In this document: positions 9,304-62,453 of the stretch, one piece after another | Layout of the letters: every line of letters begins with the position of its first letter | How positions within the stretch are numbered: position 1 is the first letter of the stretch | Virus record (IMG/VR): IMGVR_UViG_3300021401_000005 | Location: 9,766 to 73,765 of that record | Length of the DNA: 64,000 nt | Strand: one strand, 5' to 3' | Source: a virus | Taxonomy: Duplodnaviria > Caudoviricetes | Program-made: the position numbers and the translations under genes | The notes under the pieces: model-generated | Database searches by the model: none | What the model saw: the letters and a program-made list of their open reading frames with translations, nothing else | Told to the model about the DNA's origin: nothing

Positions 9304-10364
9304 TGCCACGAGAGACGGACGACCCCGAGCAGGCGACGCACTTCGGCGCGCTGATCGACGAACCGGACGACGATCTCTCGCCGGAGGAGCGATTAGAGCC
9401 GAAAACCGTCGTTGTCGGCGGCGCGCCGGTCCGCAAGGGCGACAAAAAGCCCACGCCGGCCGAGGTAGACTCGCCGATGCGGGCGTCGCCGGAGCCCCCG
9501 CCGGAGGATGAGGGCGTCCTTGAGCTGAAGCGCCAGCTCGCCAACCAGCAAAGTATGACGGCGCGCGCGGCCCAAGTGGCCCAGGCCGAGCACCAGCGGC
9601 GCATCCAGGCCGAACGCGGCCTAACCCAGTCGAATGTGCAGATGGTCGACGCCGCGATCGAGGCGGCGAAGCGCGATTCCGAACAGGCGCGAGCCTACTT
9701 CCAGGGCGCGCTCGATCGCGGCGACCACAAGGGCGCGTCCGAGGCCCAGGTCCTGCTCTCCGACGCCCGAGCCAACCTTCTGCGGCTGATGGAGATGCGC
9801 GAAGGCGTCGTCGCCGAGGCGCAGCAGCAGCCACAGCAGCAGCCGCAGCCGAGGCAGGCGCCGCAACCGCAGCGCCAGTACACGGACCCCAGCCAGCTGA
9901 TGCAGGCCAACGTCCAAAACCTCTCCGGCCACCTCGACCGAACCGGCTTCCCGAAGAGCGCTGCGTGGATCAGGTCCCACCCCGAGGCGGTCAAGGATCA
10001 GGCGGCGATCGACTCGGTCGACGGCGCGCACAACGCTGCCGTCAAGACGTTCAAATTGATCCCCGAAACAGACGCCTACTTCGACAAAATCGAGGAGCTG
10101 CTTGGCGCAGGAGAAGACCGACAGATGGGACCACAGACGCGCCAGGGCCAGCGCCAGATGGGCCAGTTGCAGCGAAACATGGCCGCGCCGGCCCGCGCCG
10201 AAGCGCCAAGCTTGCGCACCGGCCGCACGCGCGGCACGGCGGTCGCGCTCACCGCTCGCCAGCGTGAGCATGCCCGCGACGTCCTCGGCATGAGCGACGA
10301 CGAGTACGCGGCCGAGCTGCTCGACGCTCAGTCGCGAGGCAAAATGTTGGGAGCCCGCTCATGA
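9303..10364 (+). CDS. Probable capsid scaffolding protein
   Basis: Acidic N-terminus, coiled coil, C-terminal VALTARQREHARDVLGMSDDEYA; lies upstream of the capsid genes. Confidence 0.7.
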   Translation: MPRETDDPEQATHFGALIDEPDDDLSPEERLEPKTVVVGGAPVRKGDKKPTPAEVDSPMRASPEPPPEDEGVLELKRQLANQQSMTARAAQVAQAEHQRRIQAERGLTQSNVQMVDAAIEAAKRDSEQARAYFQGALDRGDHKGASEAQVLLSDARANLLRLMEMREGVVAEAQQQPQQQPQPRQAPQPQRQYTDPSQLMQANVQNLSGHLDRTGFPKSAAWIRSHPEAVKDQAAIDSVDGAHNAAVKTFKLIPETDAYFDKIEELLGAGEDRQMGPQTRQGQRQMGQLQRNMAAPARAEAPSLRTGRTRGTAVALTARQREHARDVLGMSDDEYAAELLDAQSRGKMLGARS

Positions 10365-41720: not shown

Positions 41721-41761
41721 CGACTCATTCCTTGTTGGGGGCTAGGCGCGCCCCCGTTAGC

Positions 41762-56221: not shown

Positions 56222-58225
56222 TCACGCAGCGGATTTGATAATCGCTAGGAGATCAGCCGGAAGTTGGCGATGGTACTTGAGGACGATCTTGCGCCCCAGG
56301 GCGGCCTGCTTGGCGGTGAGCCGGGGGGACGTGGCCAGCGATTTGCCGACATGCGTATCCATGCGGTTGAACCCCATGTCATCCAAGCTGGCGGCGCCGT
56401 CGCAGATGCCAGCCAGCGCACGCAGAGCCGCGTGGACGGCCAGGACGGCCTCTGGGCTAATCTTCACCGCCTCCTCGGCTACTTGCGCCTGGGTGACCGC
56501 CCTAGTGGCCGGAGGCCCCGCCCTATCGGCCGGGGGAACGTCAACCGGCTCGACGTCTGGGAGCCGTTCCTTGTCGTCGAGGGCCGCGTCGAGGTTGCGC
56601 TGCTTCTCGACGAGGATCTCCGCCGCTCTCTGTTCGTAGCTCCCGTCAAGCACAAGATGCTGGATCAGCACTGACTGATCCTGCCCCCTCCTGTGCGCGC
56701 GGTCCTCGGCCTGCGTCATATTGCCGGGGACGACATCAAGCTCCCCGAAAACGACGAGGCTCGCCGCTGTCAGCGTGATGGCCACGCCGGCCGCTTTGAT
56801 CGAGCCGATAAACAGCGTCTTGGCCGGGTTCGTCTGGAACGCATCCACCTCGGCCATGCGGTCCCGCTGCGCCGTCTCGCCGGTCACCATCACGGAGGCC
56901 GCGCCGAAATGCGCCTTGAGCGCGTTCGCCACGTCGTGGTGCCAAATCATCACGATCGTCTTGCCCTGATTCTCAATGCACTCTTCGAGGTGCGTGATCA
57001 GCTGGGGAATCTTGGCGACCGCGACCTCATGACGAACACGGCTGATCTCGGCGAAGTCCACCGCTGCGGCCTCACGCAGGGCCGCCACGGCGTTCCGATA
57101 GTCGGCTGGGTCCTCTGACGCCTTGGACAGCTCAACGGCCAGCCGTAGGGCTTCCAGGCGCTTCTCGGACGCTGCCTCGGCAGCGCTCTCCCGCGCCAGC
57201 GCTTTCTTGGCGGCGGCGCCCTCGGGGGCGATAACCACGATCTGGCGCCGCTTCGCCGGCAGTTCCTTGAGGACATCGCGCTTAAGGCGGCGAATCATGA
57301 TCGACGCGCGAAGCTTCGCCTGTAGCTCATCGAGGTTCGACGCGCCGGACACGTCCCAGCCATAGGAGCCGTGATAGCCCGCGCAGTAGCGCGTCACGAA
57401 GCTCTTCCAATTGGCGCCCAGGCCTTTCTTGTCGAGCGCCTGGACGATCGGCCAAAGCTCGATGGGCCGATTGAGGAACGGCGTTCCGCTCAGAAACACC
57501 CGGCGCCGCGCCTTGAGCGGCTCGATCTCCCAGGCGCGCGCCTTCGCGTCCCACTTGCCGAAAACCAGCGAGGTGCGCTGCGCCTTCTTATTTTTCAGGT
57601 AGTGAAATTCATCCGAGACAAGCATGTCCCACTGGCGCGCACGCAACGCATCGTGATGCTTGCTCAACATTTCATAGTTGATGATCACGACATCTGTCGC
57701 CGGAAACGCGCCATTGGCCACGCCGACAGACATGTCGCGGACCAGCCATTTCTTGGCCTCGCGCTTCCAATTGAGCTTGGGCGTGGCTGGGCAAATGATC
57801 AGCACGCTCTTGATGCTCTGATCGGCGTTGATGATGCCCAGAGCCTCGATCGTTTTGCCGAGTCCCATTTCGTCGCCGATCAGAACGCTCGGGCGATTCA
57901 TCGCGTAAGCGACCGCCGCGCGCTGGTACGCGTCAAACTTGCAGCCCTCGGGGGCTGGGATATCAACGTCTGCATCGGCCGCGCGGGAGGCCTCGATCGC
58001 CGCTGCATCGCGATCGTGCTTGGCTTGGCGTTGCGCGGTGAGGTTCGCAGCTAGCTCGCCGGGGTCCTTCCCTAGCTGGGCCGCGATTGACGCGTCCCCA
58101 GTCCACCAATATTTGTTGACGGGATCGAACCGGAAACCGGCGGCCTTAACGAGGTCTTTCGTCGCGTAGTCAAAGGGAAACCGGGCGATGAATTTGCCGC
58201 CCTCTTGCGTGACTGTGATGCTCAT
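56222..58225 (-). CDS. SNF2-family (SMARCAL1/HARP-like) helicase
   Basis: [42 protein letters not shown]; start 58225 after GGAGTCGA. Confidence 0.9.
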
Positions 58226-58248
58226 GAACTCGACTCCAGAAAGGGAAA

Positions 58249-58303
58249 ACCGGGCGGTAGGCGCCGCCCGGTCTGATATGGCACTAAACGCAAAAACCGT
58301 CAA
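58249..58303 (-). promoter_or_regulatory. Promoter TTGACG-N17-CATATC plus CGCCUA-loop hairpin
   Basis: ACCGGGCGG-CGCCTA-CCGCCCGGT immediately downstream of the -10. Confidence 0.7.
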
Positions 58304-58611
58304 CCTTGCGACAGTTTTTTCTGCGCCTCATCCTCAATATATCCCCTCGCATAGGCCTTGCGCGCGTAACTCAGGGCGCAGCGCAGCGTGCAGAACGGCT
58401 CATAGCCGCCCAGCCAGGACTTGCCGTCCCAAACCTCGATGTGGCGGATTGATGCGCCATCGGCGCGCTTGCGCACCGCGTCGCTTCTGACGATGCGTAG
58501 GTTGCCCTCATAAACAGCCTCCGCCGCCCCCTGGACCCAACATAGGGTCACAGTGTGAGTGTGCCGCTGGCCATAACGCTCGCCGCAATGGCCGCAAACC
58601 GGGCGAGTCAT
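58300..58611 (-). CDS. Cys-motif hypothetical protein
   Basis: CGHCG...FCTLRCA. Confidence 0.6.
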
Positions 58612-58901
58612 CGGATCGATCCCGCCGGGAACTTGAACCGCACCAGCCAGGACGGGCCGCGCGAGTTGCGCAAGTACGCAAGCGGCTGGATGTGCCGATC
58701 GGCGACGCCCATATACTCGTGACGCTCCCACGCGGTCCCCAGAGCGGCCCGCCAGCGGCGTCCGTACACCTTGCGCCACGCCACCATCGCTTCTAGCTCG
58801 ACGTCGGTCAGCGGGCGCGTGATGCGCCCCGCCTTGTAGCCGGCCATGTCATCCCAGCGCACGCGGTACGTCAGGCGCGAGGGCGTTCCTTCGTCGCTCA
58901 T
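58608..58901 (-). CDS. Hypothetical protein
   Basis: YGRRWRAAL...LRNSRGPSWL. Confidence 0.6.
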   Translation of the reverse strand: MSDEGTPSRLTYRVRWDDMAGYKAGRITRPLTDVELEAMVAWRKVYGRRWRAALGTAWERHEYMGVADRHIQPLAYLRNSRGPSWLVRFKFPAGSIR

Positions 58902-59191
58902 GACAGCGCCTCGTTGCTGACCCAGCTATCGCGCGGCGCCGCCCACTTGGGGTTGCCATGCTGCTCGACAATGCGCTCGATCTTGCGCTGATTCAGCTCC
59001 TCATATTCGGTCTTCGCGATCTCGACCGCCGGATTCGGATAGACGCTCGGGCTGGCGGGTTTCATGCTGAACCCGTAGCTCGTCACGCGGTGCGCGTCGC
59101 ACTGTATCCACGCGCTGAGATAGACGCGGCTCTCGCTCCCGCGAAACACCGTGAAGCGACCGTTCGTCGCCTTGAAATAGCGGAGCGGCAT
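58898..59191 (-). CDS. Hypothetical protein
   Basis: GGAG RBS; coupled. Confidence 0.55.
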   Translation of the reverse strand: MPLRYFKATNGRFTVFRGSESRVYLSAWIQCDAHRVTSYGFSMKPASPSVYPNPAVEIAKTEYEELNQRKIERIVEQHGNPKWAAPRDSWVSNEALS

Positions 59192-59391
59192 CAGATCAAC
59201 TCCGCATCGGGCGAGCCGCAGGCGGTCCGCGCCTCTTCCAGCGTGGGGTAAATCTCGCCCAGCTGGGGGACATTTCGGCGCAAAAAGCGGATCGGCTGGA
59301 AGCCGTAGGTCTGCGGCACCATCGAGCGCGCAGCCACAGAACCGGGCTGCACATCCCGCACTTGCTGGATGTACCAAACATTCAATTTCAT
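59191..59391 (-). CDS. Hypothetical protein
   Basis: GGAGTCGAAACC-ATG. Confidence 0.6.
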   Translation of the reverse strand: MKLNVWYIQQVRDVQPGSVAARSMVPQTYGFQPIRFLRRNVPQLGEIYPTLEEARTACGSPDAELI

Positions 59392-59464
59392 GGTTTCGAC
59401 TCCTTGTCGGGCAAGAGCGCCCGCGAGGCGGCGACGATCGCTCGACGCCGTCCCGCTCGCGTTC

Positions 59465-60391
59465 TCAGGCTGCTAGAAGCGCAGGCGCGCCCGTGGACGC
59501 CTCTTCGTCCGCGTCCGCCTCCTCGGCCGCCGCCGCGCCTCGGAGCCAGTCTACAGCCTTGCTGGCCGCGCTGGCGGCGGTGATGATCGCCGTTTCCCGC
59601 TCCTCAAGCAGCGAAACCCAAGTCTCGATGTAGGAAGCAGGAGCCTCGCCCATATCGATCCCCCACTCCGCACAGACGAACGCGCTGGTTAGCTCCGCGA
59701 TCAATTCCTCGGCCGCATAGGTCCGGTCGCCAAACTTGGCCCCAAAGGTCCGGTTGAGGCGCGAGGGATGTCCACTGGCGTGGCCCATCTCATGGAACAT
59801 GGTCGCGTAGTAGGGATGGGCGCCCTTGAACTGCGCGAAAGGCGGCATCTCGATGCGGTCGAGCAACGGCGAATATTGCGCCTTGCTGCCCTGCTCAACG
59901 AACCGAATCTCGGTCGCCGCAACGAAGGCGTCGAGGTCACCATCGCGCCCGTCCGGATTGACCGGCGCATGCTGGCGCGGCGCGCCAATGCCCAGGACTG
60001 AGTCCGGCAGCCCGTCGCACTGCGCGACGTTGAAAACCGGGTACGCCTTGAGGAAACCAATGCTCTTGTGCTTGTCGGGGTCCTGCCGATCGCGCACGAC
60101 CATTTTCTTGACGAAGATCACGGTGAGGCTCTTCTCGCCCGCGCGAACGGTTCCGCCGGCCGCCTTCGCTTGCTTGAACGTGAGCCAGCGCGGACCCCAG
60201 CCGTTCGCCTCGGCATGCGACCAGAGCAGGATGACGTTGGCGCCGCTGTAGGCGTGTCCGGTGACCGCGTTGCGCGGCATCACGCTTCCGTGAGCCTGGA
60301 CGCGCTCGGACCATGGCTTGCGCCACGGCGCAACGCCGGTCTTGAGCATGGCGAGGATTTTGTCGGTGATTTCGCGGTGCATGTCGCGCAT
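59465..60391 (-). CDS. ardC: ArdC antirestriction protein (ssDNA-binding plus zincin-like domain)
   Basis: GVAPWRKPW, YSGANVILLW, WLTFKQA, VFNVAQ, FHEMGHASGHPSRLNR, YAAEELIAEL. Confidence 0.9.
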   Translation of the reverse strand: MRDMHREITDKILAMLKTGVAPWRKPWSERVQAHGSVMPRNAVTGHAYSGANVILLWSHAEANGWGPRWLTFKQAKAAGGTVRAGEKSLTVIFVKKMVVRDRQDPDKHKSIGFLKAYPVFNVAQCDGLPDSVLGIGAPRQHAPVNPDGRDGDLDAFVAATEIRFVEQGSKAQYSPLLDRIEMPPFAQFKGAHPYYATMFHEMGHASGHPSRLNRTFGAKFGDRTYAAEELIAELTSAFVCAEWGIDMGEAPASYIETWVSLLEERETAIITAASAASKAVDWLRGAAAAEEADADEEASTGAPALLAA

Positions 60392-60412
60392 TGGGTTCGA
60401 CTCCAAAAAGTT

Positions 60413-60468
60413 AGGGGCGGGTTAGGCGCCCGCCCCTCTCATATAGCAGCGTCTGCAAAAGATGTCAC
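60413..60468 (-). promoter_or_regulatory. Promoter GTGACA-N16-CTATAT with near-operator and CGCCUAA-loop hairpin
   Basis: AGGGGCGGG-CGCCTAA-CCCGCCCCT; TTGCA-gacgc-TGCTA overlaps the spacer and -10. Confidence 0.7.
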
Positions 60469-60549
60469 CATCACGACGCTTTTTATTTTCAGATGCGCCC
60501 GCTCGCCATCATGAACAGCGCGAAAGCAAGCGACAGGCCGGTGCAAAGT

Positions 60550-60834
60550 TCAGCCACGGCGCACCTCCGTTAGCCGGATGGCGACCGTCCCGCCGCGCAC
60601 GACGCCCTGCCCCGCCTCGCAGCGGTAGACGCCAATTGCAGCCTGGAACGCGCACGGCGCGCACTGCATCAGGAACGAGGATTCGGCCTCGTCGCCATAG
60701 CGGCGGCGCGCGGCAAGGTTGGCGACATGGCGCGCAACCGTGAACGCATCGCCCTCAATCGCCACGGTGCAGAATCGGTCGCTCTCGCTCGGGTCAGCGG
60801 CGAGGTGGACGACATCGGCGGTGAAGCGGGTCAT
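60550..60834 (-). CDS. Hypothetical protein
   Basis: GGAGG RBS. Confidence 0.55.
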   Translation of the reverse strand: MTRFTADVVHLAADPSESDRFCTVAIEGDAFTVARHVANLAARRRYGDEAESSFLMQCAPCAFQAAIGVYRCEAGQGVVRGGTVAIRLTEVRRG

Positions 60835-61053
60835 TTAGCCCACCTCCCCGGCGACGACGATTCCAAGCTCGGCGAGCGACGTCTCGACCTGTAGCCGGCA
60901 GGCCGCCCGCTCGGCCGACTTGCGCGCGGTGAACGTCTTACCCTCGCGCATCTCGATCTCGCGCCCGTCGCGCAGGAAGAGCGCATAGCGGCGCTCGCCT
61001 TTCGAGGGATAGCGCGGGTTCAGGTCCGCGTAGACCTTGAGGCGGCACGTCAC
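60835..61053 (-). CDS. Hypothetical protein
   Basis: GTGA coupling. Confidence 0.5.
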   Translation of the reverse strand: MTCRLKVYADLNPRYPSKGERRYALFLRDGREIEMREGKTFTARKSAERAACRLQVETSLAELGIVVAGEVG

Positions 61054-61451
61054 GAGCGCACCGCCCGCTCGATGTTGCCCCACGGGGCTTGGGCGTAATC
61101 AACGCCCGCGTGCGGCAGGCGCGCCTCAAGGTGACCGATCACCCGGCGCGCCTCGGAGGCCTCCCAGGCGTCATGCTCGCAGGCTTGGTAGGCGTAGCAA
61201 TCGACGATCTTGCCGGCGGCGCCAGCGGCCAGCGTCAGCGGCTCGAAGCGATAGGCCTCGACGTCCGCCAGATAGCGCGCATGCTCTTCTGCGTGGCGCT
61301 TGGGCATGGCGTAGCGGTAGGCTACGCTCTTGACGTTCTCGCCCCAAAGCAGGCGGCCCAGGAGGTTCGCCGGCCGGGTTGAGACGCCCAACTCCAGGGC
61401 GATGGTGACAATGGCGTCAATATCGCGTTTAGAGACAACAAAAGCAGACAT
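61050..61451 (-). CDS. Conserved phage early hypothetical protein
   Basis: MSAFVVS...LWGENVKSVAYRY...CYAYQACEH; directly downstream of the ribozyme. Confidence 0.7.
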   Translation of the reverse strand: MSAFVVSKRDIDAIVTIALELGVSTRPANLLGRLLWGENVKSVAYRYAMPKRHAEEHARYLADVEAYRFEPLTLAAGAAGKIVDCYAYQACEHDAWEASEARRVIGHLEARLPHAGVDYAQAPWGNIERAVRS

Positions 61452-61472
61452 GTTTCGACTCCTCAGATTGGC

Positions 61473-61541
61473 TGACGCTTAGGCTCATCAGCTGGCGCAT
61501 CACGCCAGGACGCGAGAGGTCGAGCCCCTCGTGTTTCGCCT
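61473..61541 (-). ncRNA. Type II hammerhead ribozyme
   Basis: The - strand reads AGGC GAAA CACGAGGGG-CTCGA-CCTCTCGCG TC^ CTGGCG-TGATG-CGCCAG CTGATGA GCCT AAG CGTCA. It has the intact CUGAUGA and GAAA core, a GUC cleavage triplet, three stems, and loop I UGAUG complementary to the 3' tail CGUCA (pseudoknot). Confidence 0.9.
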
Positions 61542-61723
61542 TATTGCTCGACGCTGAACTGCCCCACCTTGTTGCCGTTGGCGTCCACCAGCGCTCCAAC
61601 CGTCTCGGTTTCGCCGCTGAACGCCAGCCGGTCGGTCACGGTGCGGAGGAGGCGCTCTATCTCGCCCAGGCAATCGTCCTCGAAAGCGGCGTTGTCGCAG
61701 GTAATCTCAATGCGCAATTTCAT
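61541..61723 (-). CDS. Conserved small phage protein
   Basis: ITCDNAAFED...LVDANGNKVG. Confidence 0.7.
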   Translation of the reverse strand: MKLRIEITCDNAAFEDDCLGEIERLLRTVTDRLAFSGETETVGALVDANGNKVGQFSVEQ

Positions 61724-61726
61724 GGT

Positions 61727-61966
61727 TCAAGCCCTCCCGCGCAGGAGGGCATGAATCCGGCGAGCCTCGGCGTTCGACACGCGAGACGAACGGCGCGCGC
61801 TGGCGATAGCCTTGTCGATCGCAATCTCTTGCTCGCGACGGGCGATGAAACGCTCGGCCGCATTGGACCCAGCGAAACCAGCGACCATCACGCCGCGATC
61901 AAAAACAAGCCAATCGTGCTCGGCGTGCTCGCTCCACTCGTTAAACTTCATCTCAAAACGGGACAT
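61727..61966 (-). CDS. Hypothetical early protein
   Basis: AAGGAGTCGAGATC-ATG at 61966. Confidence 0.65.
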   Translation of the reverse strand: MSRFEMKFNEWSEHAEHDWLVFDRGVMVAGFAGSNAAERFIARREQEIAIDKAIASARRSSRVSNAEARRIHALLRGRA

Positions 61967-61985
61967 GATCTCGACTCCTTTTTCG

Positions 61986-62042
61986 GGCGCCGTAGGCCAG
62001 CGCCTGTCCTCCAAATAGTGGGTTGGGATACACGCTGTCAAG
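61986..62042 (-). promoter_or_regulatory. Promoter TTGACA-N17-CTATTT plus GCCUA-loop hairpin
   Basis: GGCGCTG-GCCTA-CGGCGCC downstream of the -10. Confidence 0.7.
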
Positions 62043-62155
62043 CTTTTTCGGTCGCCATCGTGACGATATTTTGCGGCCGCTCTCGACTCCTTATTACATT
62101 GTCCCGCTCGACGTCCACGCAACCCCTAGCAATCCCTCGCATCACGCTTGCGCCA

Positions 62156-62236
62156 TGTCCCAGGATGTCCCAAACGTGTCCCGCCGCCTCGGACACGCTT
62201 AAATAGGCGGGACTGAGGCGGGACAAGCCAGGGACA
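62156..62236. repeat. Helically phased inverted TGTCCC/GGGACA array (candidate origin or packaging site)
   Basis: TGTCCC at 62156, 62166 and 62177; GGGAC[TA] at 62209, 62220 and 62231. Confidence 0.7.
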
Positions 62237-62453
62237 AACGCCTCAAACCCACCAAACACGATAGGCCTTTAATCGCGCTCAGAAGCCCGTTGAATGGGGT
62301 CTATTTTTTTGCATGATCTGCTATGGGCGTTTTTTGCCCCCATCAGGCGAGCCCCGCAATAGCCCTAGCGTCAATGTCTATTAGATCGGTAGGTGAAAAT
62401 TACGCGCCTAGTCGACTTTCCGATCTCGAGGCGTTTTTCAGAAATTCTGCCAA

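Follow-up and report, generated by a model that had tools for sequence, protein, structure and literature searches.

In a soil phage, a very likely genuine hammerhead ribozyme lies between two small early genes; its catalytic core can be folded into a second structure, and this second structure has probably been kept by selection. The phage is represented by a 73.8-kb virus record of IMG/VR (IMGVR_UViG_3300021401_000005, estimated 94% complete, with a G+C content of 64%), of which a stretch of 64,000 nucleotides (nt), positions 9,766 to 73,765, was analysed. This whole stretch is called the window in what follows; coordinates are those of the window, and the features described in it are on its minus strand, for which they are given in descending order. 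The ribozyme, of type II, sits in the 89-nt gap that separates the stop of a gene for 60 amino acids (61723-61541) from the ATG (61451) of a gene for 133 amino acids. Directly after it comes a tail that can pair with the catalytic core, making a hairpin – the core-masking hairpin, or mask – which resembles the leaders found behind the early promoter-like sites of this phage. We propose, with a probability that we put at roughly 0.55, that the ribozyme cuts the early RNA and that the mask is a selected, catalytically dead second fold giving the downstream message a standard leader.

The ribozyme (61541-61481) has its stem II open and its stems I and III capped. It begins with the 5' strand of stem II, AGGC (61541-61538), which pairs with GCCU at 61484-61481, and the first A of this strand is also the final base of the TAA that ends the upstream gene. 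The GAAA of the core (61537-61534) and the stem III hairpin, together 61537-61510, come next and include the A15.1:U16.1 pair (61534:61510); stem III itself, 61534-61510, has nine standard pairs, one A/C mismatch and a 5-nt loop. Placed by the established hammerhead numbering, the predicted cleavage site falls after C61509 of the GUC at 61511-61509 and before C61508, 57 nt 5' of the A of ATG 61451. Stem I (61508-61492), a hairpin of 6 base pairs (bp), or 7 with a U.G pair, closed by a UGAUG loop, would thus stand at the very start of the downstream product. It is followed by the catalytic core CUGAUGA (61491-61485, C3 to A9), where position 7, N7, is U. Everything that a type II core requires is found across 61541-61481: CUGANGA, GAAA, the A15.1-U16.1 pair, a base other than G at position 17, and G10.1-C11.1. 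An initial annotation, made from the sequence alone, had placed a type II hammerhead at the stop codon of open reading frame (ORF) 61723, with cleavage between 61509 and 61508 and that same distance to the ATG; these coordinates are borne out. Our own type II descriptor, made of the core words, U-H, two hairpins and a 3-bp stem II, retrieves exactly this site from the window, and matches 0 of 100 block shuffles.

The sequence does not stand isolated. Pattern scans of viral contigs and metagenomes yielded 28 distinct hammerheads from one phage group sharing the ribosome site GGAGUCGA, the metagenome scan contributing 11 stretches. A structure alignment of 22 of these (15 pairs, 330 cells) has 99.4% of its cells paired, with 10 of the 15 pairs changing on both sides, a result that 0 of 500 shuffles reach, while slid controls of the same alignment are 24-47% paired. 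Changes on both sides affect all six pairs of stem I and four of the five outer pairs of stem III, and the core columns are invariant, except for N7, which is U or C. Stem II, 3-4 bp long in these relatives, is made of A.U or G.U plus three invariant pairs; covariation neither supports nor contradicts it. The point is best illustrated by one relative, L005, where a hammerhead lies in the same place, ahead of a protein 98% identical to the 133-residue product: its stems I and III are almost entirely different in sequence, and still paired. The setting is as constant as the core. An open frame of 40 codons or more stops -1 to 12 nt upstream of the ribozyme (its stem II) in 27 of the 28 members; the ribosome site comes 6-20 nt 3' of stem II, and the intergenic gap is filled by the ribozyme. 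Direct reading, descriptor scan and covariation agree in this, and we hold it very likely that the hammerhead is genuine, with cleavage predicted at the site given above.

Searches cast more widely gave little. With blastn, a query of 1.5 kb around the site had no match among phage GenBank records. A scan of bacterial and archaeal species genomes for the core followed by GCCTA and GGAGTCGA returned 34 stretches, all chance matches to a pattern that was too loose, and 0 had an upstream hammerhead. When viral contigs were scanned for the same words with A, C or G at N7, only six stretches emerged; L160 among them is a new hammerhead, and L159 matches by chance.

The ribozyme also lies at a mosaic junction (window 61541-61455, compared with L005:1404-1496, L027:3258-3327 and L200:2890-2980). 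With L005 the window has the tail and the downstream gene in common, but not the upstream gene or stems I and III; with L027 it has an identical stem-loop I, but not stem III or the tail; L200 carries the ribozyme and tail of L005 ahead of a different gene. The invariant words of the core may serve as short patches of homology for the exchange of modules. In related phages, three to five hammerheads follow each other in a row, one ahead of each small early gene, while the window has a single one. L017, with four sites, and L160 come from one 18.8-kb contig, and L150 and L151 have three hammerheads each.

We now come to the mask. GCUGAUG (61492-61486), which covers most of the core, can pair with CGUCAGC (61477-61471) into a hairpin of 7 bp with the 8-nt loop AGCCUAAG, and this hairpin is part of the minimum free energy (MFE) fold. 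The 3' strand of stem II lies within this loop, and mask and ribozyme are therefore mutually exclusive. In the mask, N7 faces position 61476. Nearest-neighbour energies are close to each other, -25.5 kcal/mol for the hammerhead secondary structure and -27.7 to -28.7 kcal/mol for stems I and III together with the mask; by the same kind of calculation, a hammerhead-like fold prevails before the tail is made, losing its advantage once about 10-13 nt more have been transcribed. The hairpin is absent from a terminator scan of 57900-62400 and the tail beyond 61471 has no U run, so that nothing marks it as an intrinsic terminator. That a 7-bp hairpin overlaps the core, and that the two folds exclude each other, had been proposed by the initial annotation; both propositions hold, and relatives moreover retain the hairpin, its partner base changing to match N7.

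These changes deserve to be described. In 21 of the 28 group members a long tail carries a YRYCWG-like word opposite the core; the loops of the masks measure 6-8 nt. When N7 is C, its partner is G in 7 of 7 cases; when it is U, its partner is A in nine and G in five; C is never opposite A (Fisher test, 0.007, uncorrected for relatedness). There are three types of tail, ending in UCAG, in CCAG (with an A/C mismatch) or in UCUG (with a U/U mismatch), and each exists in a U/A and in a C/G form, which looks like three separate double changes. Counted over 20 rows, of which 14 are distinct, the mask has 86.8% of its cells paired, against 16-58% when slid, a figure in which a misaligned L160 row is included and counted as unpaired. 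Taken within the group alone, this signal is weak, and no more than suggestive. A more telling comparison comes from other viral contigs, with type II hammerheads that have the same stem II, where we looked for a complement to the core within 25 nt. A perfect 6-nt complement of the ribozyme's own core is present in 30 of the 113 hammerheads with C7, when 2.6 are expected from shuffled tails, and in 14 of the 126 with U7, when 5.2 are expected: this is an 11-fold and a nearly 3-fold enrichment. The partner follows N7, since the words found are GUCAG in 27 C7 cases, and AUCAG in six and GUCAG in two U7 cases (Fisher test, 1.7e-5); the 27 C7:G cases belong to 18 stem I clusters.

It could be argued that the ribozyme is constitutive and that its hairpin has no effect; the tail word would then be kept as a ribosome standby site, or through shared descent or recombination, and its fit to the core would be incidental. 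Indeed, the whole 3' part is common to the window and L005 because their downstream module is nearly identical (98% at the protein level), covariation within the group is weak by the shuffle control, and transitions opposite G and U are always tolerated. Such an explanation has to face the enrichment in unrelated hammerheads, 11-fold with C7 and nearly 3-fold with U7, where the partner changes along with N7, and we find it very improbable. By contrast, comparison of these sequences leads us to see in the mask, with good though not full confidence, a second fold that selection has kept in many phage hammerheads of type II, that of the window included.

What the mask might be for is suggested by its loop. 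Four other minus-strand hairpins of the window have a GCCUA loop, followed after 7-9 nt by GGAGUCGA (UGAGUCGA at 41755) and then by a start codon. The first heads the very operon in which the hammerhead is found: a promoter-like TTGACA-18 nt-TATTTG (62041-62012), recognised by eye, precedes a 7-bp GCCUA-loop hairpin (62004-61986), the whole covering 62041-61986. The second, at 60437-60413, has 9 bp, a CGCCUAA loop and then a run of U; it lies ahead of an ArdC-like gene and is the leader, or a terminator, of the next unit. The third (58274-58247; 11 bp, CGCCUA loop) stands ahead of a gene that starts at ATG 58222 within an SNF2-helicase frame (ORF 56222-58303), and the fourth (41755-41737; GCGCCUA loop) ahead of UGAGUCGAUG. 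The same arrangement pervades the group. Among 64 hairpins of at least 6 bp with a CCUA loop, listed from 24 group loci, 33 are not associated with a hammerhead and lie 3' of promoter-like sites, TTGAC(A/C/G), a spacer of about 17 nt and (C)TATnT, 6-13 nt ahead of GGAGUCGA (UGAGUCGA at 41755 of the window). Their stems vary widely and include G.U pairs that are workable only on this strand. As for the others, eight are hammerhead masks and 23 lie elsewhere in a chance-like manner.

In group hammerheads GCCUA follows the core in 13 of 13 cases obtained with a pattern that did not require it, against 23 of 120 outside the group. The A after GCC(U) is invariant there, though stem II does not dictate it, and GCCUA is on the 3' side of the loop in masks as it is in leaders. 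The resemblance to other early leaders, already remarked upon by the initial annotation, thus holds up: the GCCUA loop of the mask and its spacing to the ribosome site match the conserved, promoter-proximal hairpin of the early leaders of this phage group. This match between the loops of masks and of promoter leaders is specific to the group and is new to this report.

A few words about these leaders in their own right. As a module, they occur in the window at 62041-61986, 60477-60413 and 58310-58247, without a match to an Rfam family, and in L005, L017, L027, L036, L140, L142-L144, L150-L152, L160, L196-L198 and L203. Several of the hairpins have long G+C stems with runs of U behind them and overlap the presumed start site; they resemble intrinsic terminators laid over the next promoter, and may also terminate read-through from upstream. 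A sigma-70 scan of 57900-62400 reported no promoter; the TTGACA-17/18-TATnTn sites seen by eye do not satisfy what it asks of the final base in the second hexamer. An operator-like inverted repeat, GTCRC-N4-GYGAC, lies at about 62064-62051 and at 60477-60464, in the same place as in relatives, just upstream of the early promoter-like -35 or overlapping it. It is preceded by a run of A and may be bound by a repressor. Three ideas about the GCCUA hairpins were entertained and set aside: a hairpin promoter of the N4 type, a T-arm like that of a tRNA in GGAGUCGAAUCC, and an antiterminator site resembling boxB.

From the anatomy, the conservation and the matched changes just described, we infer cleavage, a certain order of events and a benefit to translation or stability. 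The hammerhead would cut the first early polycistronic messenger RNA (mRNA) between its second and third genes, just ahead of the site where ribosomes bind for the third. This would leave an upstream piece closed by the stem III hairpin, bearing a 2',3'-cyclic phosphate, and a downstream piece that has a 5'-hydroxyl and opens with the stem I hairpin, 57 nt ahead of the ATG. Once the cut is made, only the 4-bp stem II would join the two pieces, and they would part. With stem II open, the core CUGAUG would pair with the CGUCAG of the tail, next to the stem I hairpin. The mask would in this way remove the free core and display a GCCUA loop at the usual distance from GGAGUCGA, so that the processed message would have the same kind of leader as transcripts from the phage's own early promoters. 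Before cleavage, the mask would compete with stem II and limit the speed or the completeness of cutting. The net effect would be a natural gene-start module, made of a ribozyme plus a hairpin.

Several observations weigh against this proposal. The initial annotation had asked for a check against the Rfam hammerhead models; run over the whole window, Rfam gives no match at gathering score. Hammerhead_II (RF02276) reaches 21.7 bits for a cut-off of 37, and Hammerhead_3 (RF00008) 25 bits for a cut-off of 48.5, with E = 0.0027. The relatives fare in the same way, for on six of their loci, holding 16 ribozymes, RF02276 retrieves 0 of 16 at 37 bits, only two having E of at most 0.05 (32.6 and 32.1 bits). 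Such a cut-off is a limit that curators set on the score; it does not stand for any feature of the structure. Still, one might see here an inactive relic, or a look-alike that rightly falls below the threshold, the more so as no tertiary contact is recognisable and stem III has an A/C mismatch. A core that is invariant, while the stems around it covary freely, in 22-28 relatives, and a descriptor matching 0 of 100 shuffles, make this most improbable.

Two matters of scoring belong here. We rejected a type III reading, in which an open stem III would close the motif and a capped stem II would precede GAAA: the 25-bit alignment borrows GAAAC from the ribosome-site motif GGAGUCGAAAC, and has non-standard pairs at 3 of 7 positions in the closing stem III and 1 of 4 in stem II; the relatives are without that GAAAC. 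The weak Hammerhead_3 match arises because this GAAAC, within GGAGUCGAAAC, misleads the type III model. Our own covariance model, R1, finds in the window only its seed site, at a necessarily circular 75.8 bits, plus weak matches of 8-14 bits; some of the latter are on leader hairpins, and we take them as alignment to GCCUA and GGAGUCGA only.

A further difficulty is that a tertiary contact was sought in the group and none was found; activity of the ribozyme at cellular Mg2+ is therefore an assumption. The published norm for type II is a pseudoknot between loop I and the 3' tail, although many members use other contacts or none (in the main account of Perreault et al., 2011, PMC3088659). The window seems at first to conform: its tail CGUCA can pair with the UGAUG of loop I through 5 bp, one of them G.U, and the initial annotation saw there an active pseudoknot. 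The pairing is indeed possible, and the reason is that loop I reads the same as the core, UGAUG; yet the group as a whole shows no signal, the longest pairing between loop I and tail having a mean of 3.21 with the member's own loop and 3.33 with the loops of other members, over the 28 hammerheads. The method can detect the contact, for a control set of unrelated hammerheads displays the published pseudoknot (at least 5 bp in 23% with their own loop and in 8% with swapped loops).

This has to be weighed because the initial annotation went further and imagined a two-state switch, where the tail CGUCA would pair either with loop I, the ribozyme being active, or with the core, the ribozyme being inactive, and a protein binding the GCCUA loop would set the balance. 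Both pairings are possible in the window, the pseudoknot is what the published type II account and the control set lead one to expect, and the GCCUA loop is a conserved leader motif. In addition, in four unrelated viral contigs (L048, L222, L249 and L300) loop I has core letters (UGAC..), and the tail word, judged by eye, fits both this loop and the core. However, in the group a loop is matched by its own tail no better than by a swapped one. L027 has the stem-loop I of the window with a short tail lacking the word, and L005 has the tail of the window with a different loop I, UUUGG. Loop I is in this subgroup no more than U-N-N-N-G, which leaves 5 nt, or 3 nt if U.G closes. We judge the two-state switch improbable.

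The mask itself has its weaknesses, which are to be added to those of the ribozyme. The tail is short, and there is no mask, in 7 of the 28 group members; the mask is imperfect in 12 of the 21 long tails (nine with one internal mismatch, two degenerate and one reduced to a 4-bp remnant), and that of L160 is perfect, but has only 5 bp. The hairpin must therefore be dispensable. Its covariation within the group is not significant, as 123 of 500 shuffles reach the observed value, a weak result which is explained by the fact that only one pair of the mask can vary and that U accepts both A and G. The regional global MFE, -35.6 kcal/mol, is that of a third fold, neither hammerhead nor mask. The likeness to leaders is in part forced, because stem II dictates the GCC(U) of the mask loop. 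As a bare word, GCCTAAG is no commoner in the window than chance would have it, with four occurrences for 3.7 expected.

There remains the question of when the mask acts. It might do so mainly before cleavage, as a kinetic brake or as a switch coupled to translation: forming as soon as the tail leaves the polymerase, it would keep most transcripts uncut, until something opens it, such as a ribosome that loads 8 nt downstream, on GGAGUCGA, or the release of one that has terminated at the upstream stop codon, which overlaps stem II. The ribozyme would then report on translation. The energies lend themselves to this idea: the mask fold has an advantage of 2-3 kcal/mol over the hammerhead secondary structure, and the addition of about 10-13 nt is enough to end the preference for a hammerhead-like fold. 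So does the geometry, since in 27 of 28 members the ribozyme has a stop codon -1 to 12 nt away, and the 3' end of the hairpin lies 20 nt from the ATG; regulated cleavage of phage hammerheads has also been raised as a possibility, in the main account of Perreault et al. (2011, PMC3088659). Against a brake, 7 of 28 relatives have no such hairpin and many others have a weakened one; besides, phage genes are commonly packed tightly whether or not they are coupled. We see the brake as somewhat unlikely, and stay with the proposal that the mask mainly serves after the cut, as a standard leader.

That proposal may be extended, in a speculative vein. Hammerheads and promoters would then be interchangeable gene-start modules, converging on a (G)CCUA-loop leader 6-13 nt before GGAGUCGA; a factor acting in trans, from phage or host, would read the loop for translation or stability and could hold an uncut ribozyme off, making cleavage a regulated early step. 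We offer this as a rather doubtful conjecture.

The surroundings of the ribozyme are those of an early operon. Along the minus strand come a promoter-like site, the apparent start, a GCCUA hairpin, GGAGUCGA, a 79-residue gene, the 60-residue gene, the hammerhead, the 133-residue gene and two further small genes; next are another promoter-like site and the hairpin 60437-60413, and then the ArdC-like anti-restriction gene, three genes downstream of the hammerhead. The 60-residue gene (61723-61541) belongs to phrog_9027, of unknown function, and the 133-residue gene (61451-61050), whose L005 counterpart was cited above, is without family match; Pfam and PHROGs assigned no function to the small flanking proteins. 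The latter gene has its ribosome site GGAGUCGA at 61462-61455 and its ATG at 61451-61449, a unit covering 61462-61449. This extended ribosome-site motif heads most early genes and is common to related phages, with GGAGUCGAAAC as a frequent form. As for GGAGTCGA, it occurs exactly 11 times on the minus strand of the window, from 62090 to 34161, and an ATG or GTG follows within about 16 nt in 10 of the 11, the exception being 62090.

A second conserved intergenic motif precedes GGAGUCGA at 59450-59408: a palindromic stretch containing GUCGAGCGAUCGUCGCC, then a short CGGGCG/UGCCCG hairpin. The motif with GUCGAGCGAUCGUCGCC recurs in L027, L036, L150, L151 and L055. A transfer RNA gene was found by Rfam on the minus strand of a related 78-kb phage contig (L151:1639-1711, 59.2 bits).

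Inactive folds of self-cleaving RNAs are no novelty. Viroid and satellite hammerheads have alternative inactive folds, and the ribozyme of hepatitis delta virus (HDV) is subject to inhibitory pairings with flanking sequences; these act in circular replicating RNAs, where they spare the mature genome. The phage element is like them in that catalytic bases would be sequestered in a more stable competing structure. It is unlike them in its place, which is the mRNA leader of a DNA phage, directly ahead of a ribosome site.

The hammerhead and the context of its gene belong to what is already known, clustered phage hammerheads included. Type II hammerheads were described around single prophage genes of Agrobacterium, Azorhizobium and Clostridium; one prophage hammerhead adjoins the anti-restriction gene ardA, and cleavage was obtained in vitro and in Escherichia coli (in the main account of Perreault et al., 2011, PMC3088659). 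The present ribozyme has the same core, the same permuted topology and a similar setting, small phage genes close to an anti-restriction gene, and the role proposed then, cutting long phage transcripts into mRNAs the length of a gene, is the one proposed here. It departs from the published consensus, which includes the loop I/3'-tail pseudoknot, in that its subgroup shows none and scores below the Rfam cut-off. A pairing of the tail with the core is not mentioned in that main account.

To this, engineering adds two parallels. In the synthetic insulator RiboJ, a hammerhead from a satellite RNA and then a hairpin of 23 nt precede the ribosome site (as outlined in PMC8794103). The order – ribozyme, hairpin, ribosome site – is that of the phage, and in both cleavage would strip the upstream context and leave a standard structured leader. 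RiboJ is engineered, with a hairpin separate from its ribozyme, while the phage hairpin is built from the catalytic core, and for this reason ribozyme and leader cannot coexist in the phage. The second parallel is with engineered blocking strands, which in cis pair with a ribozyme and keep it uncut (as presented in PMC3553993); these are a man-made tool, unlike the present element, which is natural and conserved. This strategy, in the part of that source considered, is the closest that we found: in agreement with the initial annotation, to which the coupling was new, no paper in the literature searched describes a core-masking hairpin.

A review noted in 2019 that further work was needed to define the purpose of bacterial and phage hammerheads (PMC6765202). 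A conserved off-fold that pairs the catalytic bases gives a handle on what phage hammerheads do. It is short, it can be broken and restored by two-base changes, and N7 provides a natural compensatory site. Ribozymes of this kind are likely to be under-counted when phages are annotated, because the subgroup stays below the Rfam cut-off (0 of 16). Finally, that the off state reproduces the hairpin of promoter leaders suggests that intergenic ribozymes may give genes internal to an operon the same standard 5' end, a logic that synthetic biologists have also reached, with ribozyme insulators.

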